A stretch of 64,000 nucleotides of DNA from a virus. The DNA is taken from positions 43,081-107,080 of the IMG/VR virus record IMGVR_UViG_3300047470_000212; one strand, written 5' to 3'. Shown here piece by piece: positions 6,619 to 63,770 of this stretch; position 1 is the stretch's first letter; each line of letters starts with the position of its first letter. The translations under genes were made by a program, and so were the position numbers. The notes beneath the pieces were generated by a model. The model was not told the DNA's origin. It ran no database searches and worked only from the letters and a program-made list of their open reading frames with translations.

Positions 6619-6905
6619 TGGGAGTACTGCCGATCGAACTGCCTGCTGGTGCGCGGGCGCCGGGCGAAGGGGACGCCGGGGGTGTAGTGCCCCTCCTGGA
6701 TGTGGTCCGGGTTGGCGCACATCCGTCGCGTGCACGCGCGGTGCTTCTGGCTGCCGCCTCCGGTGATGAAGGACAGCAGGCTCTGGCCCTTGTAGGTGGG
6801 CCGGGTCGCGGTGGACTGGAAGATCAGGCAGTCGGTGTCCGGGTCCGGCTGGACGCGGTCCCAGAAGGCCTGTCCCAGGTGTTCGTAGCCATCAGGCGGA
6901 AGCAT
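6612..6905 (-). CDS. Degenerate HNH-endonuclease-like zinc protein
   Basis: FWDRV..DCLIF...HRACTRRMCANPDHI; GGAGG RBS. Confidence 0.55.
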   Translation of the reverse strand: MLPPDGYEHLGQAFWDRVQPDPDTDCLIFQSTATRPTYKGQSLLSFITGGGSQKHRACTRRMCANPDHIQEGHYTPGVPFARRPRTSRQFDRQYSQC

Positions 6906-10622: not shown

Positions 10623-11690
10623 TCAGGACCAGTAGTCCTCGTTGAACCTGTTGTTCTCCACCTCGTCGACCTTGTCAGCCTTGCCCAGTCGCTGGGTCAG
10701 CAGCCCACGGGCGGCAAGGAAGTCCTTCCAGGCGACCACGTTGTCCGAGCGCTGCCAGGAGGTGGACCAGTAGGTGATGATCATCTGGCGTACCTCTTCG
10801 CGCCCAAGGCCCTGGGCCATCCACCGGCCGAAGGTCCCAGTCAGGGCTCCGAGGTTGGTGGAGCCGGGGACCGGGTGACCTACTTCCCCGGCCCGGTGGT
10901 CGAAGAATTCCGCCAGTTCCTCCGAAGGCCTCTTGGAGCGCTTCTTAGGAGTTCGCCGGGCCGGAGGGGCCAGGTCGCCATCCGAAGCCGGGAGACGGGC
11001 GGCCAGGGACTCTCCTGGATCACCGTCACCGATGGCCTGGGATACCACGTAGGCCGGATCGAGTTCCCGCTCGGCCTGCTCCTGCTCCAAGGCCTCCTGC
11101 TTCCGGGACTTCCTCTTGCCGCCAGGACCCCGGAGGGGGCGTACCGCATTCCAGCCCTTGGCTCCCGGCCTGGGAGTCTCCTCGGCATCGTAGAGATCCG
11201 ACCGCGCCGACTGGCGCGGTGGAAGAGACGTAGTCTCTTCTATTTCTCTAGTAGTACTAGTTAGGTAGTTAGGGGTTGGGTGCACTCCAGTGCAGGGTGC
11301 AATATTTGCAGGGTCCTCTGGAGTTGTTATGTCACAACTACCTTCGTCGACCCCTGCATTATTTGCAGGTGTAGTTCTTGCACCCTTCTCGGGCTCCGGA
11401 ATCCACTCTTCGATGGGGAGAATCCGGCGCACAGCGGACTTGTACCGCAGGGACTCCAGAGGCCTCTCCTCGTCGGAAACGGACTCGATGATGCGACGCT
11501 CCTCCAGGTCCCGCAGGACGTTGTAGGTCTGCCGCTCCTTGATGTTGGCCTTGCTGGCGATGGTTGGTACTGAAAGCCAGCACATCCGGAAGTCGTCATC
11601 CGCTGCGTCGGCCATGGCCAGCAGGACCAGTCGGGATGCAAGTCGGGTGTGCTTGCTCCGCATCACCTCGCCCATGATGATTACGCTCAC
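10623..11690 (-). CDS. Replication initiator with N-terminal winged HTH
   Basis: RLVLLAMADAAD...CWLSVPTIASKANIKERQTYNVLRDLEE; precedes DnaC/DnaB. Confidence 0.75.
   Translation of the reverse strand: MSVIIMGEVMRSKHTRLASRLVLLAMADAADDDFRMCWLSVPTIASKANIKERQTYNVLRDLEERRIIESVSDEERPLESLRYKSAVRRILPIEEWIPEPEKGARTTPANNAGVDEGSCDITTPEDPANIAPCTGVHPTPNYLTSTTREIEETTSLPPRQSARSDLYDAEETPRPGAKGWNAVRPLRGPGGKRKSRKQEALEQEQAERELDPAYVVSQAIGDGDPGESLAARLPASDGDLAPPARRTPKKRSKRPSEELAEFFDHRAGEVGHPVPGSTNLGALTGTFGRWMAQGLGREEVRQMIITYWSTSWQRSDNVVAWKDFLAARGLLTQRLGKADKVDEVENNRFNEDYWS
11230..11385. promoter_or_regulatory. Putative replication origin inside the initiator gene
   Basis: Repeated TGCA-based units (TGCAATATTTGCAGG, TGCATTATTTGCAGG) next to an AT-rich tract. 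Confidence 0.55.
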
Positions 11691-11734
11691 TCGGCGACTC
11701 CGAGGAAGCGATAAGTATGAAGCGATAGCGTCAT
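11687..11734 (-). CDS. 15-aa leader ORF MTLSLHTYRFLGVAE carrying CTT-CAT-ACT in frame
   Basis: Stop overlaps initiator start (GTGA). Confidence 0.55.
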   Translation of the reverse strand: MTLSLHTYRFLGVAE

Positions 11735-25641: not shown

Positions 25642-25906
25642 TCGGGATCCTGACAATCTGGCCCGGCGTAAGGACCGTCCAGTCCAAGATCTCGGGATTG
25701 GCGTCGGCGATGTGCCACCACATCCGGGCGTCGCCGAAGTACTGCACGGCGAGCAGGTCGATACGGTCGGAGCCGTTCAACTGGTGGTAGGTGAAGTTGA
25801 ATGCCCACTCCCGCTGCTGGGATGGCACGAGGGTGAGGTTCGTCCCGCGTCCGGAGGCGACCAGCGTGAGCGTGGATTCTGCATACCGGGAAGTAGCGGA
25901 GATCAT
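25634..25906 (-). CDS. LysM/tail-X-like baseplate protein
   Basis: DRIDLLAVQYFGDARMWWHIADANP. Confidence 0.85.
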   Translation of the reverse strand: MISATSRYAESTLTLVASGRGTNLTLVPSQQREWAFNFTYHQLNGSDRIDLLAVQYFGDARMWWHIADANPEILDWTVLTPGQIVRIPNA

Positions 25907-26661
25907 CGTCCGGCCTTTCCGTTCGCGCCCTTGGCGAATTCGTCCGGCGTCAGTCCGGCCGGGAGCCTGCCGAAGGACACGAACTCCCCGCCGCCCTTTG
26001 GCTTCGGAAGCAACTGCATGGTGATGCCGACTTGGCAGCGGGACGGGATCATCTGCTGGGTCCAGTGGGTGTACTGGATTTCCAGGTCCTGGATGACCCC
26101 GTAGTAGTTCAGGGTGTCGCCGACGATGAGGTAGACCGGGACGTAGAGCATGGGTCCGGCCGCATCGAAACTGAACTGACCCTTTCGGAAGGACTTCGTG
26201 GAGTCGCCCTTGGCGTCCTCCCCCTCACCGGTTACCGCTACCGACGCGGAAATACCGGTGATCTTGTAGAGCAGGGAGATGTCCCAGCCCACGCCGAGAG
26301 CAGGCACGAATACGTTCTCGGCGCCGGACACCCGGGAGGAGTCCCACATCTCGTAGGTGCGGTCGAACAGCAGGTTGAACTGGACCGTCTGCTGCAACGG
26401 CATCAGGAAGTCCTTTGCCGTCACGTCGTTCGGGTTCAGTGCGTTGTCGTCTGCCTGGACCGCCGAGTTCACGGAGTGGGAAACGTTCAGGACGCTTGGG
26501 TTGTAGAGGAAGTTGCACCGGTAGCGCACTCCGTCGACCGGCTTTTCCTGGATGATGAAGCCACGGCTCAACTTCTTCCCGCCGCCCACAAGGGACTGGA
26601 GGCCGGGGAGTTTCGTTATCCGTGGGTCGAAGGAGCCGTTGTCCTGGATCCGCGTAGCCAT
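25903..26661 (-). CDS. Tail tube initiator-like protein
   Basis: FLYNP, FNLLFDRT; position after tape measure. Confidence 0.65.
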   Translation of the reverse strand: MATRIQDNGSFDPRITKLPGLQSLVGGGKKLSRGFIIQEKPVDGVRYRCNFLYNPSVLNVSHSVNSAVQADDNALNPNDVTAKDFLMPLQQTVQFNLLFDRTYEMWDSSRVSGAENVFVPALGVGWDISLLYKITGISASVAVTGEGEDAKGDSTKSFRKGQFSFDAAGPMLYVPVYLIVGDTLNYYGVIQDLEIQYTHWTQQMIPSRCQVGITMQLLPKPKGGGEFVSFGRLPAGLTPDEFAKGANGKAGR

Positions 26662-26747
26662 CAGACACCCACCGCAAAGTCGAAGCGGCGAGTGTTCCGG
26701 AGGCGGGGCCCAGGGCCCCAGGTATGAAGTCGGTCAGTGAAAGCCAT
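26661..26747 (-). CDS. 28-aa bridging mini-ORF MAFTDRLHTWGPGPRLRNTRRFDFAVGV carrying CTT-CAT-ACC in frame
   Basis: Start overlaps tape-measure stop (TAATG); stop overlaps next start (TGATG). Confidence 0.6.
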   Translation of the reverse strand: MAFTDRLHTWGPGPRLRNTRRFDFAVGV

Positions 26748-29740
26748 TAGTTACCTGCCGCGATGAGATTGATCCGGTTGTCCTCGGCGATGGCCTGCAT
26801 GAACTGCTGGGCTGCATCCCGGGCCGAGCGCTGGTCCATGACGCCCTGTACCTGCACGGTGATCGCACCGGTGTGGAAGTTCAGGGTGGGCGAGGCGCCC
26901 TTGGTATGAAGCCCGCCGACGCTGGCCATGGCGTTGTTCCCGGCCAGGACGTTACGGATGGCCTCGGCCTGGTAGGCGGGGATGATCATCTCGCCCTTGT
27001 GGATGCGTGCCGTCTGGTCGACGTCCACGTTGGTCGAGCCGACCGCGTATCCCTTGTAGCCACCGCCGTTGTTCATGCTCTTGATGCCGGGGGTATTTCC
27101 CAGCGAGCCGTAGCGGGAGTCCGCGTAACGCACACCAGCGATGATGTTGTCGACCGGGTTCCAAATGTCTTTATGGCCCTTGATCGAGTAGTGATTGAAC
27201 GTCGAATCGATGGTCTGCATAATGCCCTTGGACGGGTGACCGGCCTTGGCATTGCTGTCCGTCAGGTTGATGGCTCGGGGGTTACCACCGGACTCGTGCA
27301 TGATCATCGTGTTGACGATCCGCTCGTTGGCCTTCGAGTCCTGCTTGATGATTCCGAGCGCAGACTTGATCCACTTCGCGACGTTCCCCTTCGGCATAGG
27401 GCCGGTAGGAACGCCGTTGTCGCTCTTCTCCTTCTTGTCCCCGGCACCTCCGCTGGAGCCGACGCTCGCCGAACCGATGGCGGAGATACCGGCCGCGATG
27501 GCGTCGGCCTCCTCGGTGGACCCGTAACTGCCGACGTCCCCGCCGAAGCCCATGGTGGACAGGCGGTTGTCGGAGGAACCGGCGGTGTCGGTGCTGTCGT
27601 CGGACGGGTCGCCCATGTTGCCGACCGAGCCCAGGATCCGGCGTGCGTTGGTGAACTCGCTTGGCCGGTAGGAGCGGACGCGGACCACGGCGCCCGTGTG
27701 CGGCGCCTCGATGATCTTGCCGTTGCCTATGCACATCACGACGTGATGGGCGGGGTTCCCGTTGAAGAGAAGGTCGCCTGCACGGACCTCGGAGAGTTTC
27801 ACTGCCGAGCCGGTCTTCTGCTGCTGCGCAGCCGTGCGGGGAATCGACACACCGATCTGCCGGAACGAGTACTGAAGCAGGCCGGAGCAGTCGAAGCCCT
27901 TGGGAGTACTGCCACCCCACACGTACTTCACGCCGAGGTACTTCATGGCGACCTTGATGACCGCAGCGGCCGTCTTGCCTGCGCCCTGCGTACCGGTGGC
28001 CTTCGACCCGGACTTACCCGAGCCTCCCGTGGCGGCCGAGGCGTTGCTCTCCCCGGCGCCACCGAAGATGCCGATACCGGCGCCGATCGCACCACCGACC
28101 ACAGCACCGACACCGGTACCGATGACCGGGACGATGGAACCGATCGCAGCACCGGTCAGTGCACCCGTGGCGGTGTCCACGCCGACATGGCCCCACTTGT
28201 TGCCAGTCGAGCCCTTCTTGCTGACCTTGTCGACCAACTGACCACCGAAGTGGTGCGTGCCCAACGCGGCCAGACCGAAGCCACCTGCCGCGCCCAGGGC
28301 GGCACCGGACAGGTCCAGCGCTCCGGCCGCAGTGGCGGAACCTATTGCGCCTCGGGCGGCACCCAGGATGCCTCCCCCACTACTTCCGCCCATGCCAGCG
28401 AGACGGCCCACGCTGGCCAGGCCACGCGCAGCGCCGTAGGCGCCGATACCGCTGCCGATGCTGGAGCCCAGCAGGGAGCCAGCGCCACCACCCCAGCCCA
28501 GGAGTGTGTCCGCGCCAGACGACTTGAGAACGCTCTGGAGCGCGGTGGAGAACTTGTCCAGGTAGTCCGTAGCGGTCTTGAGACCTTCGGTGAACGCGTC
28601 GTTGGTGTTCACGTCTTGGTTTCGCAGGGTGCCCGCACGAGTCATCAGGGTGTTGGCCGACGAACCGCCGATACCCATCTTCCCGAGCGCGCTCTGAGCG
28701 GCGTTCTTCTTCTCCTGCGTGGAGCCGCTGTCGCGCTGGTTGGCGAGGCTGGTGTACGTCTGCGCGGAGCCTCCGTGGATCTGCGCGAGCATCATGCCCT
28801 TGAGTTCACCCTTGACCAGTTGCAGGGTGTTCGCGTCCAGGCCCCAGGAGTTCAACGACTGGTTCAGACCCGAGCCCGGGTCGTCGAGGGTCGCCGACAA
28901 CTGTGCGTTCGACTTGACCCGCTTGAGTTCCGGGAACCGCTGGAAGATCTGCTGGGCGATCTGGCGAGGGCTCTGCTTCTGGCCGCTCTTGATCGTCTGA
29001 ATGCCCATGCCGCGCAGCGTGTTGTACGTCGGCGCACTCCACGCGGCGACTGTGCCCTGGGCTCGCTGCGCCTCGGTCATGCCCGGGTTCATGTACCCCG
29101 AGGTGCCCTTGACGTAGTTCCAGTTCGTGTTGAAGTTCGCAGAGCCGGGCGACATGCCCACCTGCGAAATCGTGCCGTAGGCCTGCCCGGCATCCTGGGT
29201 GGACGCGGCGGTGAAGTTGTTCTTGAAGGCCTGGTCCCGCAGGGTGTGCCAGGACTGAGACGAGTACTGCGCCGCCTGGTAGGCGGTCGTCTGCATCAGG
29301 ACCTGGTCGGGCAACTGCTTCTGGCCCCAGGCGACAGCAGCGGTGAGACCACCCTTGAGGGTGTGCGGGCTCCTCCGGCCACCGTTGTTGGCTGCGCCAC
29401 CGCCCTGACGGGTAGTGCCCGAGCCACCGGATCCGCCGGAACTACCGGAGCCGCCGTTGTTGGCCGCACCGCCGCCCTGCGAGCCGTTGTTGGAGAAGCG
29501 GACGCCGCCACCGTTGCCGGTGCCACCGTTCCGCGACATGTGGTAGTTGCTGGTGCCGTTCCATACGTCACCGAGCGCCATACCGAGGCCTCGGCTGCGG
29601 GACATCTGCCCGACACCGGAACTCACACCCTGGAGACCCCTGTTGAGGTCCGTCACGGTACGCGCGAGGGCAGAGATCGCGTCCTGGGCCTTGTTCCATC
29701 CCAAGAGCGGTCCCTGCCCCGCCACAGTACTCTCAGCCAT
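26747..29740 (-). CDS. Tape measure protein with NlpC/P60 and lytic transglycosylase domains
   Basis: YVWGG..GFDCSGL...HV; HESGGNP..GIMQTI..DNI. Confidence 0.9.
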   Translation of the reverse strand: MAESTVAGQGPLLGWNKAQDAISALARTVTDLNRGLQGVSSGVGQMSRSRGLGMALGDVWNGTSNYHMSRNGGTGNGGGVRFSNNGSQGGGAANNGGSGSSGGSGGSGTTRQGGGAANNGGRRSPHTLKGGLTAAVAWGQKQLPDQVLMQTTAYQAAQYSSQSWHTLRDQAFKNNFTAASTQDAGQAYGTISQVGMSPGSANFNTNWNYVKGTSGYMNPGMTEAQRAQGTVAAWSAPTYNTLRGMGIQTIKSGQKQSPRQIAQQIFQRFPELKRVKSNAQLSATLDDPGSGLNQSLNSWGLDANTLQLVKGELKGMMLAQIHGGSAQTYTSLANQRDSGSTQEKKNAAQSALGKMGIGGSSANTLMTRAGTLRNQDVNTNDAFTEGLKTATDYLDKFSTALQSVLKSSGADTLLGWGGGAGSLLGSSIGSGIGAYGAARGLASVGRLAGMGGSSGGGILGAARGAIGSATAAGALDLSGAALGAAGGFGLAALGTHHFGGQLVDKVSKKGSTGNKWGHVGVDTATGALTGAAIGSIVPVIGTGVGAVVGGAIGAGIGIFGGAGESNASAATGGSGKSGSKATGTQGAGKTAAAVIKVAMKYLGVKYVWGGSTPKGFDCSGLLQYSFRQIGVSIPRTAAQQQKTGSAVKLSEVRAGDLLFNGNPAHHVVMCIGNGKIIEAPHTGAVVRVRSYRPSEFTNARRILGSVGNMGDPSDDSTDTAGSSDNRLSTMGFGGDVGSYGSTEEADAIAAGISAIGSASVGSSGGAGDKKEKSDNGVPTGPMPKGNVAKWIKSALGIIKQDSKANERIVNTMIMHESGGNPRAINLTDSNAKAGHPSKGIMQTIDSTFNHYSIKGHKDIWNPVDNIIAGVRYADSRYGSLGNTPGIKSMNNGGGYKGYAVGSTNVDVDQTARIHKGEMIIPAYQAEAIRNVLAGNNAMASVGGLHTKGASPTLNFHTGAITVQVQGVMDQRSARDAAQQFMQAIAEDNRINLIAAGN

Positions 29741-44998: not shown

Positions 44999-45107
44999 GC
45001 TTCCTCCTGGTGCGGGGTTGGCTGCGTGTCCGACTCTACAGACGTCAAGCACATTCATCAAGATGATTGCGTAGCACTTCTTGAGAAGCGATAGTAGGGT
45101 GTGCGTC

Positions 45108-45266
45108 ATGGAAACCAACGCGCTTCATACCTCGGGGCTCACCGAGCCCCAGAGCAACATGACCGTCAGCCTGACGAACAACCGCATGGAGGACAGCCGC
45201 TGGAACCGACTCCTCACCATCCTCTTCACCCCGCAGGACGAGGACGCCCAGGCAGCCACCGCCTAG
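45108..45266 (+). CDS. 52-aa ORF upstream of serine recombinase, with CTT-CAT-ACC at codons 6-8
   Basis: METNALHTSG...; otherwise strongly C/G-ending codons. Confidence 0.6.
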   Translation: METNALHTSGLTEPQSNMTVSLTNNRMEDSRWNRLLTILFTPQDEDAQAATA

Positions 45267-45388: not shown

Positions 45389-47473
45389 ATGGCCAGCATA
45401 GCGGCCGAGCGGGCCCGTGTACGCGCGCAGAAGGTCAACGGCACCCGCCCCGGAACCCCCGGAACCTTCCAGTCCAGCACCGCCCTCGCACGCATCGTCA
45501 AGCGTGTCGGCGCCTACCTCCGTGTGTCCACCAAGGACCAGATCGTCGGCTACGGCCTCGACGTCCAGCTCAAGGGCATCCAGGACAACATCGACCTCAA
45601 GAACGCGACGGAAGAGCGCAACGGCACCAACATCGTCTGGGAACTCTCCGACGTCTACGAAGACGCGGGCGAGTCCGGCGCCAAGCAGGACCGGCCCGAG
45701 ATGATGCGCCTGGAGCGCGACGTCCTCGCCAAGAAGATCGACGTCGTCGCCGTCCACAAGTTCGACCGCATCGGCCGCACCGGCCGCGCCTTCTGGCACT
45801 GGGTCTGGGCCCTCGAAGATGCCGGAACCTCGATCATCTCCGTCACCCAGGAGATCGACACCACCACCACCCACGGCGTCACCGCGCTCCAGCAGCTCGC
45901 ATCCTTCTCCGAGATGGAATGGCGCACCATCCTGGAGCGCACCCAGAACGGCCTCAACATGAAGGCCGCCTCCGGAGGCTGGACCGGTGGCCCCCCGCCC
46001 TTCGGCTACTACATCGAGAACCAGGGCAAGCGCGACTCCAAGCTGGGCCTCGATACCGAAGAGTGCCGCACCCTCGAACTCGCCGCCCAGTTCATCGTCG
46101 AAGGCGGCTACACCGTCGACCGCGCCGCCCACATGCTCAACCTCATCGGCCGACTCACCCGCAAGGGCGTGGAGTGGACCGGATCCAACCTCCGGCACAA
46201 ATTCTTCAACACCGCCCTGGACGGATTCGTCGTCTACCGAAACACCGACGAAGTCGTCAACAAGCGCCGTAAGCGCGCCACCCGGATGAACCCTGACGGC
46301 ACCCCCAAGCACGGCCCCATGGTGATCATCGACACCCCGATGGTCTTCGAACTCGACCGGCTCATCTCCATCCGCCACGCCCTCAAGCGAAACGGCTGGA
46401 ACCTCACCGGCCCGTACAAGTACCACCCCCTCAGCACCCGCGTGATCGGTGAATGCGGCGCCCACTACACCGGAGTCTGGGTAAAGGCCGAGAACCGCCG
46501 CACCTACCGCTGCACCGGAAACAAGTGCGGCGACTCCGTGATCGACGCCGTGGCGCTCGAAGAAGTCGTCTGGGACAGCCTGAAGAACTTCCTCGGCGAC
46601 AAGGAGAAGCTGCGCGAGATCGCCAAGGACTGGGTGACCACCGCACCGGATCACCGCAAGATGTACGAGGCTCGTATTGAAGAACTCACGCGGGAAATCG
46701 CAGGTCTGCGTGAGCTGACCACCACCACGCTGGTCAACCTCGCGAAGGCGGGCGTCGATGCGCTGGCCATCAATTCAGCAGTGGCGAAGCTGAACGAGGA
46801 GATCAACAACAAGCAGGCGATGCTGGACGACGCCGTGTCGATGCTGGCGGAGGCGGAAGAGTCCGCTACTCGCGCCGAGGATTTCCAGCGCCTGGTCGAG
46901 ATCGCCACCTTCAACCTGGAGTTCATCACCGACCGGCAGAAGGCCGAAGTGATGGACCTGCTGGAGATTCAGGTGACGCTCATCGGGCCGGTTCCGCTGG
47001 ACGGCCGCTTCGGGCCGGACTCCGACATCGAGCAGTGGTTCGGAAAGCGCAGTGTTCAGCCGGTCGAGATGACCGATGCGCTGTGGGAGGAGATCCGTCC
47101 TCGGATCAGCTTCCGGGCCTCGAAGAAGAGCCACGATCTGCGGGGGCTGGTGGAGGGTCTGCTCTACAAGGCCCGCACGGGTTGCCCGTGGTCTGAGATG
47201 CCGGAGCACTTCCCGCCGAAGGAGGCTCTGAGGGCCCGCTGGAGGGCCTGGAAGGACGGGGCGTGGGAGAACATCGTCGAGCCTCTTCTGGAGCCCGCTC
47301 CGCCGCGTAAGCCGCCGCTGCCGCCCATGAAGGTGACGGGGAACATCGACCCCCGTCTGGTCGAGTTCACCAACGGTCAGGCGACGAGCCAGGTTCCGCA
47401 CTCTGCTGGACGAACTTCCAGGGGATTGTTCACGTACGTCATCAACCTGGAAAAATGGCGATTGGCCGCCTGA
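45389..47473 (+). CDS. Large serine recombinase with C-terminal DUF4096-like domain
   Basis: YLRVST, ESGAKQDRP, DRIGR, PFGY, zinc ribbon and coiled coil; MTDALWEEI...LLYKARTGCPWSEMP. Confidence 0.93.
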   Translation: MASIAAERARVRAQKVNGTRPGTPGTFQSSTALARIVKRVGAYLRVSTKDQIVGYGLDVQLKGIQDNIDLKNATEERNGTNIVWELSDVYEDAGESGAKQDRPEMMRLERDVLAKKIDVVAVHKFDRIGRTGRAFWHWVWALEDAGTSIISVTQEIDTTTTHGVTALQQLASFSEMEWRTILERTQNGLNMKAASGGWTGGPPPFGYYIENQGKRDSKLGLDTEECRTLELAAQFIVEGGYTVDRAAHMLNLIGRLTRKGVEWTGSNLRHKFFNTALDGFVVYRNTDEVVNKRRKRATRMNPDGTPKHGPMVIIDTPMVFELDRLISIRHALKRNGWNLTGPYKYHPLSTRVIGECGAHYTGVWVKAENRRTYRCTGNKCGDSVIDAVALEEVVWDSLKNFLGDKEKLREIAKDWVTTAPDHRKMYEARIEELTREIAGLRELTTTTLVNLAKAGVDALAINSAVAKLNEEINNKQAMLDDAVSMLAEAEESATRAEDFQRLVEIATFNLEFITDRQKAEVMDLLEIQVTLIGPVPLDGRFGPDSDIEQWFGKRSVQPVEMTDALWEEIRPRISFRASKKSHDLRGLVEGLLYKARTGCPWSEMPEHFPPKEALRARWRAWKDGAWENIVEPLLEPAPPRKPPLPPMKVTGNIDPRLVEFTNGQATSQVPHSAGRTSRGLFTYVINLEKWRLAA

Positions 47474-50330: not shown

Positions 50331-50573
50331 TTAGATATGAAGACCGGCCTTCTTAAGCTGATTCTTGGCCTTGATCCAGCCAGGGGTCGCTCCGGTTAGC
50401 CCGCTGATGCAGACCGTGTTCCCCTTTGGGTCGACCCACCGGATGTGGTTTCCTCCGGTGACTGTCACCGTCCATTTGTCCTTTCGCGCCTTCTTTACGA
50501 CCTTCTCGATCTCCTTGTCGGCTCCGAGTCGGCCAGAGCTGCTGCTGGCCACTGGTGCACCCTTGCGGGCCAT
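50331..50573 (-). CDS. HicA-like RNase-fold protein, no adjacent HicB
   Basis: WTVTVTGGNHIRWVDPKG...LKKAGL; GGAGG RBS. Confidence 0.65.
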   Translation of the reverse strand: MARKGAPVASSSSGRLGADKEIEKVVKKARKDKWTVTVTGGNHIRWVDPKGNTVCISGLTGATPGWIKAKNQLKKAGLHI

Positions 50574-55751: not shown

Positions 55752-56010
55752 TCTGGCCGTCCTCCTTGTCCTTCTTGTCCTTCTTGGCCGACCAGGCGCT
55801 CAGTTCGTCGTACCAGGCGAGGTAGTCGCCGTAGCCGCCCTTGCGTCCGCCGAAGGAGAACGGGTTCAGGCCGTAGCGGATCGGGCCGTAGGGCCAGCCC
55901 TCGTCGTCCCGCTCGACCACGGTGGTGACGGTCTTGGAGAACTCGCTCCAGTTGCCGTCCTTGTCCTTCTCGCTGTGGACCACGGTGGTCGTTGTCGTCC
56001 TACGCGACAC
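55744..56010 (-). CDS. Hypothetical protein
   Basis: Overlapping operon gene. Confidence 0.6.
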   Translation of the reverse strand: MSRRTTTTTVVHSEKDKDGNWSEFSKTVTTVVERDDEGWPYGPIRYGLNPFSFGGRKGGYGDYLAWYDELSAWSAKKDKKDKEDGQNA

Positions 56011-56194
56011 TGTCTTCCTCCAGGTTGTACTTGCCGTAGAAGTCGATGTGCAGGGAGTCGTTGTTCTCCGCGCGGTCCAGCCAGCGTTTGGCGAAGACCT
56101 CGCGGGAGTAGAAGAGAGTCCTGGCGGCCCAGGTGCCGTCCTTGTTGATCAGCACCCGGACCTTCCAGAGGTGGTTGTCCCTAGCCGTCCGCAC
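56000..56194 (-). CDS. Hypothetical protein
   Basis: Overlapping operon gene. Confidence 0.55.
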   Translation of the reverse strand: MRTARDNHLWKVRVLINKDGTWAARTLFYSREVFAKRWLDRAENNDSLHIDFYGKYNLEEDSVA

Positions 56195-58368: not shown

Positions 58369-58662
58369 ATGTTCTGGTCCTGCGAGATCTGCAACGACTG
58401 GGGGGTCGCCGACAACGAGGTCGACCTCGTGGTGGACCGCCAACGGCACAAGGACACCCACGAGTTCCCGGGCACGACAGAGCCCCAGCAGGAGTCCGTG
58501 GAGGAGGATGAGGACACTGTCCTCGGCGCCAATTACCTGGCGTGGGGTATCACGGCCCTGCTGGGGCTACTGTCTGCTCACTGGCACGCGCTGGTGGGGG
58601 TAGTCCCCCTGGCGGGCCTGCTCGCCTTCGTCCTGACCTTCCGGCCGAACGACAAAGGGTGA
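58369..58662 (+). CDS. Small zinc-finger/membrane protein
   Basis: CEIC...H..H; two TM segments; AGGAGG RBS. Confidence 0.65.
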   Translation: MFWSCEICNDWGVADNEVDLVVDRQRHKDTHEFPGTTEPQQESVEEDEDTVLGANYLAWGITALLGLLSAHWHALVGVVPLAGLLAFVLTFRPNDKG

Positions 58663-58743
58663 ACGAAGGGGGTCGAACCCTCACGCCCCTCTCGGGACAC
58701 CGGGGTCACAGCCCGGCGCGGCTACCTTTTCGCCACGTTCACC
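58658..58743 (-). tRNA. tRNA-His(GTG) with G-1:C73 and an atypical long variable arm
   Basis: Acceptor GTGAACG/CGTTCAC, anticodon arm CCGGG-CTGTGAC-CCCGG, variable stem GTCCC-GAGA-GGGGC, T arm GAGGG-TTCGACC-CCCTT. Confidence 0.85.
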
Positions 58744-59422: not shown

Positions 59423-59914
59423 CTACTTCACGGTGTAGCGACCGTAGTAAACGGACTTCGTCCAGGGCTTGTAGTAGTTGACTCCCTTACCGGGCCGCTC
59501 GGTTTCCAGCCAGGTGTGGGAATTGACGTAGATACCGACGTGGTAGACGTAGCCGTGGGAGTCGTGCGCGAAGACGAGGTCCCCGGTCTTGGGGGTCTTG
59601 ACGTGCACGCTCTTGCGGTACTGGTCGTTGGCGACCCGGGGGATGCTCTTCCCGAGGCGCTTGAATGTGTACTGGGTGAATCCAGAGCAGTCGAAACCTC
59701 TGGACGGTGAGGAACCTCCCCACACGTACCGGACGCCTATGTATTTGGCGCCCTGCTTCACGATTTTCGTTCCGGACGACGTCGTGGTGGTGGCGTGGGC
59801 CGGGGCCGAGACGTTCGTGGAGGCGGCCGGGGTATTTGCCTGCGCGCTTGATGTAGCGAGCGGGGAAATAGCCAGGGCGCCAGCGAGCAGAAGTCCAGCG
59901 ATGCTCTTATTCAT
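59423..59914 (-). CDS. Secreted NlpC/P60 peptidoglycan endopeptidase
   Basis: Signal peptide MNKSIAGLLLAG..AQA; YVWGG, FDCSG, HVGIY. Confidence 0.92.
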   Translation of the reverse strand: MNKSIAGLLLAGALAISPLATSSAQANTPAASTNVSAPAHATTTTSSGTKIVKQGAKYIGVRYVWGGSSPSRGFDCSGFTQYTFKRLGKSIPRVANDQYRKSVHVKTPKTGDLVFAHDSHGYVYHVGIYVNSHTWLETERPGKGVNYYKPWTKSVYYGRYTVK

Positions 59915-59928
59915 GACAGCACTCCGCA

Positions 59929-60052
59929 CGCCTGCGAGATTAGGTGACGGGCTCGGGATAAGTGCCTTTCCCTACCACAAATGACTCTGCGGATTCGCCC
60001 CAAAAGATTCGGTCTCCCGCCCCTGTTCAGGGTTGAGTTCAGGATTTGTCCA
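59929..60052 (-). ncRNA. c-di-AMP (ydaO/yuaA)-like riboswitch
   Basis: AATCC..GGGAGACC..TTTGGGGCGAATC..GTAGGG..CCCGAGCCCGTCACCTAATCTCGCAGGC directly before RBS of a cell-wall hydrolase. Confidence 0.75.
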
Positions 60053-62556: not shown

Positions 62557-63474
62557 TTAGAAGTCGCCCGGGGCAACCTGAAGGCAGGTCAGGCCGAGGT
62601 TGTTCCGCCACATATCGACGACCTGGTTGCGGTCGTCGAGCACGAAGCGGACGTTGTAGAACGGCTCGACCTTCCCTCGGTAGATCTCTTCCTTCACGAT
62701 GGCGTCCCTGCGGTTGTCACCGGCCGCCCGCATGTACAGGAACGCCTCCCGGGTCCACTTCCCCACGTGACGCTCCAGCCAGGCGCGCGTCTGCTCGTAG
62801 CAGGAGCCATCCCGGCCGGACAGGAACACGATCTCCACGCCCGAGTCGTCGAGGGTGTTTACCAGGTTCACGACATCCCTGATCGGCTCGTCCTCGCCGA
62901 CCTTGTCCCAGTCGAAGGGACCGCGCGAGACCATCTTGGCCAGCGTGCCGTCGATGTCGACCAGGACCGCGTCCTTAAGGGACGGGTCGTACTCAGGAGG
63001 CGCCACACGAGGCCGCAGGTACGTGTCGTACATCCGCTGGATGACCTTCTCTCCCACGCTCCGCTCGCGCAGCAGGTCGCGCTTGATGCAGGTCCGCAGC
63101 GGCACGTCAGTGAAGTCCTTGACGACGAACTGCACCCCGTAGTGCTCCGCGATGTCCCGCAGGTTCTTCTCGTGGACCGGGTTGAAGTTGGTGTCGTCCA
63201 CGATCACGCTGATGCCACGCACCAGCCAGGTATGAAGCAGCGCGTCCCGAGTCCGTACGACCTGCCGCTCGTTCTTTCCGTGCCAGCGCTCCGCGTGCAG
63301 CATCGCCCGCAGGTCGTCCTTGTTGATGCGGATCAGGGTGCCGGGGGCGGCCTTGAGGACCTGCTCCTTGGCCCAGGTGCTCTTGCCCGAGCCGGGCAGG
63401 CCCTTGGTCATGGTCAGGGTGGTGGTCACAGGCTTCTCCTTGGGTCCGCAGCGGTTGCACTTGAGGTAGGTCAT
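62557..63474 (-). CDS. Polynucleotide kinase/3'-phosphatase (T4 PseT-like); alternative start 63429
   Basis: GLPGSGKST, DDTN, DIDGT, SGR, DDR. Confidence 0.92.
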   Translation of the reverse strand: MTYLKCNRCGPKEKPVTTTLTMTKGLPGSGKSTWAKEQVLKAAPGTLIRINKDDLRAMLHAERWHGKNERQVVRTRDALLHTWLVRGISVIVDDTNFNPVHEKNLRDIAEHYGVQFVVKDFTDVPLRTCIKRDLLRERSVGEKVIQRMYDTYLRPRVAPPEYDPSLKDAVLVDIDGTLAKMVSRGPFDWDKVGEDEPIRDVVNLVNTLDDSGVEIVFLSGRDGSCYEQTRAWLERHVGKWTREAFLYMRAAGDNRRDAIVKEEIYRGKVEPFYNVRFVLDDRNQVVDMWRNNLGLTCLQVAPGDF

Positions 63475-63770
63475 CGACAGCACCCGTCGCAGCCGTGGAC
63501 GCTCTCCCAGGCCGCCGCCTCGTCGCCGAGGAACAGCCGCTTGTATTCGAGGTCGTCCGGGTCGGGGTGGCCGATGCCGTGGGGGCAGGTCCGCTCCATC
63601 AGCGCCCGGTCGAACCGGAAGTGCTGGGGGAAGTCCTGCATGGTGTGGGAGGAGGGGTTGTGCACGGCGCAGTGGCGGCCGATGCAGTCCTTGCGAGGGT
63701 GGGCGAGGATCTCCTCCCCGCCCACCAGCTCGGCCCGCTCGAACCACCCTCCGAAGTCGAAGGGCACCAT
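63471..63770 (-). CDS. Cys/His-rich hypothetical protein
   Basis: C..HCAVHNPS, CPHGIGHPDPD, HGCDGCC; overlaps both neighbours. Confidence 0.7.
   Translation of the reverse strand: MVPFDFGGWFERAELVGGEEILAHPRKDCIGRHCAVHNPSSHTMQDFPQHFRFDRALMERTCPHGIGHPDPDDLEYKRLFLGDEAAAWESVHGCDGCCR

Follow-up and report, generated by a model that had tools for sequence, protein, structure and literature searches.

What does a 28-codon open reading frame do between two tail genes of a phage, and why does it contain a short motif that is met again elsewhere in the same genome? The question is raised by a 64,000-nt stretch of DNA (the window) taken from an IMG/VR phage genome of 107,080 bp with terminal repeats and a GC content of 64.6%. 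A small “bridge” ORF here occupies the gap between a tape-measure-like gene and a gene for a tail-tube-fold protein (Table 1). The tape-measure stop codon (TAA, 26749-26747) shares base 26747 with the ATG of the bridge (26747-26745), giving TAATG, and the bridge stop codon (TGA, 26663-26661) shares base 26661 with the next ATG (26661-26659), giving TGATG. Codons 6-10 of the bridge (CGA CTT CAT ACC TGG, 26732-26718, minus strand) read RLHTW in frame. A reading made from the sequence only had described this exact fit, both overlaps and the in-frame motif, together with a chain of overlapping baseplate genes downstream, and all of this is present on the minus strand. The same sequence-only reading proposed that the bridge acts as a relay, passing dependence on the motif to the genes that follow. 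A 28-codon open frame is by itself unremarkable at 64% GC; a degenerate RLHTW pattern occurs twice in the window, against 0.04 expected.

The genes around the bridge encode a sheath, a tube, a T4-baseplate-like protein, the tape measure, the tube-fold protein, a tail protein X-like protein, a gpD-like hub, a gp5-like spike and gp25. Most of them overlap by 1-11 nt, including those of the downstream chain, in which the 252-codon tube-fold gene comes first. Its product gives a weak match to CIS_tube, the tube of contractile injection systems. The tape-measure ORF matches the tape-measure genes of Gordonia and Rhodococcus phages, and comparison with cultured phages at the DNA level gave nothing beyond such short tape-measure matches. 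Among phages in culture, the Streptomyces myoviruses of the BRock group are the nearest relatives, with 47-49% identity in the sheath; the corresponding genes of BRock abut with no bridge ORF between them, and no enrichment of the motif was found in that phage.

Table 1. Positions of the bridge, its RNA elements and other features in the window (numbered from the first base of the window unless a locus is named).
Feature	Positions	Strand	Remarks
28-codon bridge ORF (P0001), with stop codon	26661-26747	minus	runs 26747 to 26661
Tape-measure-like gene, 997 codons	26747-29740	minus	NlpC/P60 and SLT domains; upstream of the bridge
Gene for 252-aa tail-tube-fold protein (tube initiator / hub-proximal)	25903-26661	minus	downstream of the bridge
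9-mer CTTCATACC	26721-26729	minus	read Leu-His-Thr; one of 40 genome copies
Hairpin 1, GGGGCC-CUG-GGCCCC	26705-26719	minus	predicted by folding; begins 2 nt past the 9-mer
Hairpin 2	26657-26704	minus	predicted by folding; 5' arm within the bridge ORF
Second RLHTW mini-ORF, 19 codons	6892-6951	minus	between a primase-like gene and a 97-codon ORF
15-codon mini-ORF with CTT CAT ACT	11687-11734	minus	stop overlaps a GTG start (GTGA); from sequence and fold
80-aa HicA-like protein (P0002)	50331-50573	minus	short-loop form, found with C-type signals
64-aa protein (P0003)	56000-56194	minus	second gene following signal type
55-codon ORF with the lone plus-strand 9-mer	45099-45266	plus	9-mer at codon 9
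Large serine recombinase with DUF4096	45389-47473	plus	
tRNA-His(GUG), 86 nt	58657-58742	minus	type II, long variable arm, C73
163-codon ORF	59423-59914		downstream of the riboswitch
c-di-AMP (ydaO-type) riboswitch	59915-60049	minus	71.9 bits; gathering score 38
RNA-repair set: PNKP (HAD_PNKP + AAA_33), T4 Rnl1-type RNA ligase, RlaP nucleotidyltransferase	62557-63483; L080:2-997; L080:1864-2517	minus	

A search with the downstream protein gave 49 viral loci, 42 of which can be compared at the bridge position. The most common arrangement (30 of 42) has no bridge at all, with a direct overlap of the tape-measure stop and the next ATG. Inserts come in two sizes: a long form in three loci (L003, L004 and L017), always of 28 codons, and a short form in nine, always of nine codons, reading MRLN[TI]W followed by three more residues. 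The ATG of the short form comes 1-2 nt past the tape-measure stop, and a TGA or TAA overlaps the next ATG. The 3' overlap of stop on start is kept in all 12 insert loci and the 5' overlap only in the long form. Length and stop-on-start are conserved across the three long and five distinct short variants, while the spacer ahead of the ATG varies, and the stop codon alternates between TGA and TAA in the insert-bearing loci and is never replaced by a sense codon. Since the long and short inserts have common ends, the two forms are taken to be homologous; their distribution is patchy.

Within the long peptide, conservation covers only the 9-mer and hairpin 1, and residues 15-24 drift through non-synonymous changes. 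The conserved parts of the insert are the 9-mer, hairpin 1 and the arm that pairs with the Shine-Dalgarno (SD) sequence. ATGGCT flanks the insert on both sides. The 86-nt insert is not a repeated sequence: it is unique among nine genomes save for its orthologue in one relative (G002), and just a core of 12-18 nt recurs elsewhere. A MITE-like mobile element was rejected on these grounds, as there are no multiple full-length copies. The bridge gene is thus real but optional. Because 30 relatives couple the two genes without it, by direct overlap of stop and ATG, it is not the obligatory relay that had been proposed; what persists in relatives, wherever an insert is present (12 loci), is the open frame, the motif in frame and the 3' overlap.

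The bridge RNA is predicted to fold into two hairpins. Hairpin 1 encodes the GPGP of the bridge peptide. The 3' arm of hairpin 2 includes an SD-like GGUGGGUG (about 26666-26675), the G of the AUG downstream and the two bases that follow it, and the predicted fold has a z of -2.4. Hairpin 2 is kept in four sequences by one-sided changes, with no double compensatory change among them, and the changes in its 5' arm mostly preserve pairing. The short-form bridge has a single predicted hairpin with the downstream AUG in the stem. Since the SD and AUG are predicted to lie within hairpin 2, opening it would take ribosomes that translate the bridge, and this model of the fold suggests that initiation of the downstream gene would depend on them. 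The geometry of a relay is therefore plausible, hairpin 2 covering the SD and AUG, but the ORF is optional and its peptide is not conserved beyond the motif and hairpin. No site resembling a sigma-70-type promoter (-35/-10 with 16-18 nt spacing) was found in 26400-27000. We consider it fairly probable that the bridge serves as a translated coupling bridge.

The motif itself is far from restricted to the bridge. CTTCATAYC is present in 40 copies in the 107-kb genome, where about 0-0.7 would be expected, and it is the most over-represented 9-mer both in this phage (G000) and in its relative G004. Thirty-nine copies are on the minus strand and one is on the plus strand, within a plus-strand ORF, and all are sense. 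Every copy lies within an ORF and is read Leu-His-Thr/Ile. Of the copies, 33 fall within called genes, whose start codons are approximate, and every one of these is in frame 0; the codon-position GC periodicity at the sites places all copies in the frame CTT CAT AYC. Upstream of the 9-mer, there is no information content except this codon periodicity. CTT-CAT makes up 39 of the 81 Leu-His pairs (about 0.5 expected), CTT and CAT being minor codons. The density is about one signal per 2.6 kb. About a quarter of the copies are no more than 70 nt upstream of a gene start, and many are deep within long genes; a further copy lies in the tape-measure gene itself (26903-26911), 54 codons ahead of its stop. 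The 55-codon ORF with the plus-strand copy is just upstream of the large serine recombinase gene. No description of the motif was found in the literature searched.

Other mini-ORFs carry the signal as well. The second RLHTW mini-ORF has an ATG that overlaps the upstream TGA, and it overlaps the start of the next gene by 14 nt. The last 12 bases, CTGATGGCTACG, are identical in the two RLHTW mini-ORFs (6880-6894 and 26651-26665, minus strand). At 6892, the frame ATG GCT ACG opens a 22-codon ORF only; the real gene downstream begins 13 nt earlier, in another frame. By sequence and folding, this mini-ORF, the 15-codon mini-ORF at 11687-11734 and a recA leader are similar in build to the bridge.

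Each copy of the 9-mer has a hairpin after it. Pairing sets in 2 nt past the 9-mer in 21 of 39 copies, and the 32 nt that follow the 9-mer have a mean minimum free energy of -11.4 kcal/mol, against -7.0 kcal/mol in random-window controls (p=2e-10). Hairpins at orthologous sites are often quite different in sequence, with the offset kept, and at one such site GGAGGC/GCCUCC is replaced by GAAGGC/GCCUUC, a double compensatory change. Such comparisons of sequence indicate that the 9-mer and the adjacent structure are both selected. The stems are nearly all Watson-Crick, and sense and antisense folds are of equal stability. G-U pairs were for this reason uninformative as a test of RNA versus DNA structure, and the equal stability means that the structure could also be formed at the DNA level.

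Eight larger related genomes were fetched for comparison with G000. Related genomes have 21-39 same-strand copies each and usually one reverse copy, and they fall into two types: the signal is CTTCATAYC (C-type) in G001-G003, G009 and G010 and CTTAATAYC (A-type) in G004-G008. G or T at the variable position never exceeds chance. At sites orthologous to those of G000, G001-G003 have 20-28 CAT each and no AAT, and G004-G008 have 14-19 AAT each and at most one CAT. This split does not follow the structural genes. The tube-fold protein of G006 is 95% identical to that of the window, and the flanks are near-identical at several sites, yet the sites read A. Such a concerted switch at conserved positions implies a trans-acting reader with two specificities. 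C-type and A-type phages are found in the same soil metagenomes; sample 3300046459, for example, contains the C-type loci L003 and L012 alongside the A-type L005.

Since all sites exchange His for Asn together, and the residues around them show no conservation, a peptide motif or arrest peptide was rejected. The RLHTW of the bridge is almost certainly one instance of a genome-wide nucleic-acid signal. A signal in the peptide or the His codon is also argued against by the fact that the switch from His to Asn is genome-wide and goes with a HicA-like gene. A dedicated tRNA was rejected as the reader, as the type II tRNA-His occurs in G000 and G001 alone; the CAT-type G002 and G003 are without tRNA-His. 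A tRNA-Asn is present in seven of the nine genomes scanned, whatever their signal type, and no tRNA of any kind was found in the fragments G007 and G008.

The strict frame of the signal can be accounted for by the codons available to the phage. TTA is absent from the 25,148 codons of the genome and ATA is rare. An A-type signal shifted by two bases would present a TAA stop codon and, shifted by one base, TTA ATA, which leaves Leu-Asn-Thr as the single viable frame for the A-type; because lineages flip types at conserved positions, C-type sites inherit the same frame. This account removes the main argument for the ribosome as an obligatory reader, although the ribosome is not thereby excluded. 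Codon cost alone was rejected as an explanation of the strict frame: away from the motif, CAT, ATA and TCA are equally rare. The phage has a tRNA-Leu(CAA) for TTG, and the lack of TTA fits a Streptomyces-like host. In Streptomyces, TTA depends on bldA.

Several features of the genome concern RNA more generally. The tRNA-His(GUG) has the long variable arm of a type II tRNA, a body that normally belongs to tRNAs for Leu, Ser, Tyr and Sec; it is conserved in G001, with compensatory changes, and absent from G002-G006. The ydaO-type riboswitch is situated among the tRNA genes, upstream of the 163-codon ORF. Combined with five tRNA genes, the RNA-repair set suggests traffic with host nucleases that act on tRNA or mRNA. 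The relative G004 has a provirus classification, and the phage group may thus be temperate.

The candidate for a trans-acting reader came from a comparison of the 151 predicted proteins of G000 with those of three CAT-type and five AAT-type genomes. P0002 showed the largest type-linked gap of all, with 68-77% identity within the CAT type and 37-39% to the AAT type. Since its neighbor shows the opposite pattern, with 93-94% identity to AAT-type genomes, the P0002 gene behaves as a swapped cassette. AAT-type copies contain a 15-residue insertion in a loop, and P0002 has an N-terminal extension. The form of the protein agrees with the type of the signal in 24 of 24 viral loci, a covariation that rests on few independent events because the protein tree is essentially one split; the evidence is mainly the contrast of G000 and G006 against deep clades. 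The last codons of the P0002 gene are themselves a copy of the 9-mer (CTT CAT ATC TAA).

P0002 belongs to a family of 341 small proteins, from which a 66-member alignment was made. The Pfam HicA_toxin model (PF07927) hits 21 of these 66 at E<=0.01, the best at 7e-7, and P0002 itself scores 17.8-18.1 bits, below the cut-off of 27. The family profile retrieves 1whz, a HicA homologue, at E 0.005 and the HicA structures 6g26 and 4c26 at E about 0.4. The only invariant column in the 66 sequences is His43, in a GGNH motif, which aligns with the His of 1whz. In an AF2 model (pLDDT 74), P0002 has the topology alpha-beta-beta-beta-alpha, with helices at 20-31 and 64-76 and strands at 35-39, 43-47 and 53-58. 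VIA-align gave Z scores of 4.7 for 5yrz_D, 4.6 for 4p78_D, 4.6 for 6g26_E and 4.3 for 1whz, tied with unrelated small folds; the HicA chains superimpose with an rmsd of 2.8-3.0 over 56-59 residues, and the Dicer dsRBDs score about 4, again low and tied with unrelated small folds. Foldseek returned no significant match to the model, and ESM Atlas look-ups of P0002 and P0003 gave no usable result. No HicB-like neighbor was found, the neighboring ORFs having no Pfam match, and P0002 is accordingly an orphan gene.

HicA toxins are described as sequence-relaxed and translation-independent. Such an enzyme would predict neither a 9-mer site nor the rule that all copies lie in ORFs, which argues against P0002 as the reader. 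The case for P0002 as the reader of the signal appears evenly balanced, and it is doubtful, though possible, that it cleaves its target rather than only binding it. A second gene, P0003, also follows the signal type, with identities of 74-89% against 51-55% across types, a weaker covariation than that of P0002. It has a 9-mer plus hairpin just upstream, and its GTG start overlaps the upstream ORF; no family could be assigned to it from the searches run. A distant phage, G011, has a HicA-like gene yet lacks the motif. The idea of a third HicA form with a third motif was rejected, as G011 has no over-represented 9-mer.

The best explanation at present, which we hold to have about an even chance of being right, is that the bridge is a translated spacer carrying a phage-wide cis signal that is read on the mRNA by the HicA-like protein. 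The 86-nt insert lies exactly between two genes that are joined stop-on-start in most relatives, and it contains one copy of the signal: CUUCAUAYC, two bases and a GC-rich hairpin on the sense strand. Being read as a small ORF, it would preserve the coupling of two genes that once overlapped, since ribosomes leaving the tape-measure gene could still reach the baseplate genes. Hairpin 2 would lock the downstream SD and AUG, and translation of the bridge would unlock them. RLHTW would be a by-product of a nucleic-acid signal that is confined to the Leu-His/Asn-Thr frame. The 80-aa HicA-like protein, with its predicted dsRBD fold and invariant His, would be the most likely reader, acting on mRNA, and binding or cutting at the 9-mer beside the hairpin would uncouple or tune downstream expression, as in the case of T4 RegB. 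Far more speculative, and in our view improbable, is that the roughly 40 mRNA tags form a barcode read by a HicA-fold protein with two exchangeable specificities, in an immunity-like relationship between related phages. The nuclease or binder of each phage would then need or spare its own code and disable the transcripts of a co-infecting relative, and bridge ORFs would put whole operon tails under control of the reader. A variant of this idea in which the factor is linked to the ribosome, and acts solely on translated copies or solely on untranslated ones, would also explain why every copy is in an ORF.

The ribosome could instead read the signal directly. The rare wobble pair CUU-CAU and the hairpin would cause a programmed pause or recoding, the hairpin reaching the mRNA entrance with CUU in the P site, and the mini-ORFs would be leader peptides that relay dependence to the coupled genes. 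The total frame lock fits such a role, and so does the position of the hairpin, which starts at +11 counted from the first base of CUU and thus 5 nt past the A-site codon. All copies are in ORFs, those between genes having a conserved ATG of their own, and the unusual type II tRNA-His(GUG) of G000 and G001 would also find a place. We nevertheless regard a ribosome-read signal as rather unlikely: His changes to Asn in concert at all sites, even between near-identical phages, the tRNA genes show no matching change, and it is a trans-acting protein that co-varies with the signal type. The TAA and TTA in the other frames explain the frame lock, and CUUCAUA is not a slippery heptamer. A programmed frameshift site was rejected for the latter reason, and because the same frame continues on both sides at all sites, although the spacing would fit.

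A signal in DNA would be either a promoter for an unrecognized phage factor, with transcripts beginning in the 5' hairpin, or a strand-specific site for nicking or priming, and the mini-ORF would be incidental. The strand specificity, a density like that of phage promoters, the quarter of copies close to gene starts and the almost wholly Watson-Crick stems of equal sense and antisense stability are all consistent with this idea. However, the bridge site has no -35/-10 consensus, and neither a sigma-70 region 2 nor a T7-type RNA polymerase was found in the genome, the T7 search being without a working control. The orientation tracks the gene even for the single plus-strand copy, and this speaks against a role in replication or packaging; many copies are buried within long genes, and the conserved ATG of the mini-ORFs would stay unexplained. 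A DNA-level signal is for us improbable. The insert might, finally, be an untranslated leftover, a scar left by recombination or by the loss of a mobile gene, with a fortuitous open frame and overlaps. It is missing from 30 relatives, the second half of its peptide drifts non-synonymously, 28 codons would by chance stay open about half the time at this GC content, and the ATGGCT on both sides would suit a scar. Yet its length, ATG and stop-on-start are kept in three long and five short variants against a variable spacer ahead of the ATG, its stop switches between TGA and TAA and never to sense, its 9-mer, hairpin 1 and SD-pairing arm are conserved, and it is not a repeated element, so that a leftover is very unlikely.

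If the reading of the bridge as a translated spacer with an mRNA-level signal is right, the phage group has a genome-wide post-transcriptional regulon made of a toxin-fold protein and a nine-base-plus-hairpin tag in coding sequence, with two specificities that can be swapped between close relatives. This would be a second, independent case, beside T4 RegB, of a toxin-like RNase directed at a phage's own messages, and a natural pair of orthogonal sets of RNA tag and reader. It also follows that a nucleic-acid signal can pose as a conserved peptide (Leu-His-Thr) and as a rare-codon pair, with the frame locked by a stop or unusable codon in the other frames. For annotation, it would account for several puzzling mini-ORFs between essential phage genes.

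T4 RegB is a small phage RNase with a toxin-like fold that targets many mRNAs of its own phage at a GGAG motif, often in translation initiation regions; the RegB transcript is among the targets, and the cut ends are processed by the phage PNK (PMC3014915). The present phage likewise encodes a PNKP, and its P0002 gene ends in the motif. RegB, however, has a RelE/YoeB-like fold, unlike the HicA/dsRBD-like topology predicted for P0002, and the resemblance would be functional rather than familial. The RegB site is 4 nt long and is blocked by structure, whereas the signal here is 9 nt with an obligatory adjacent hairpin. The sites here also differ from those of RegB in lying within ORFs, always in one frame and in both early and late genes, and in having two exchangeable specificities.

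With HicA toxins, P0002 shares its size, the alpha-beta-beta-beta-alpha topology predicted by its model and an invariant His after a Gly-rich turn. It departs from HicAB systems in its sub-cut-off Pfam score, in that no HicB-like neighbor was found, in its N-terminal extension and in the 15-aa loop insert of one form. No classical HicA is known to require a long specific site. The bridge resembles leaders of the erm/cat type and termination-reinitiation systems as a short ORF with its stop on the next start and a predicted hairpin hiding the SD and AUG. Unlike those leaders, it has no evident inducer or arrest peptide, its peptide is not conserved, and it is itself coupled to the gene upstream and carries a genome-wide signal.

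The stoperators of cluster A mycobacteriophages are DNA repressor sites, mostly intergenic and without a hairpin. As with stoperators, the signal consists of dozens of short asymmetric sites in one orientation to transcription, with specificity variants among related phages. Stoperators are read by one phage protein; the candidate reader here has, by its model, an RNA-binding fold, and the sites are in frame within ORFs and have an adjacent hairpin. There is also a likeness in layout to the nut sites of lambda (boxA plus the boxB hairpin), where a hairpin on the nascent RNA comes after a single-stranded box that is conserved. Lambda, however, has few sites with a specific boxB, whereas this phage has 40 copies with variable hairpins inside ORFs.
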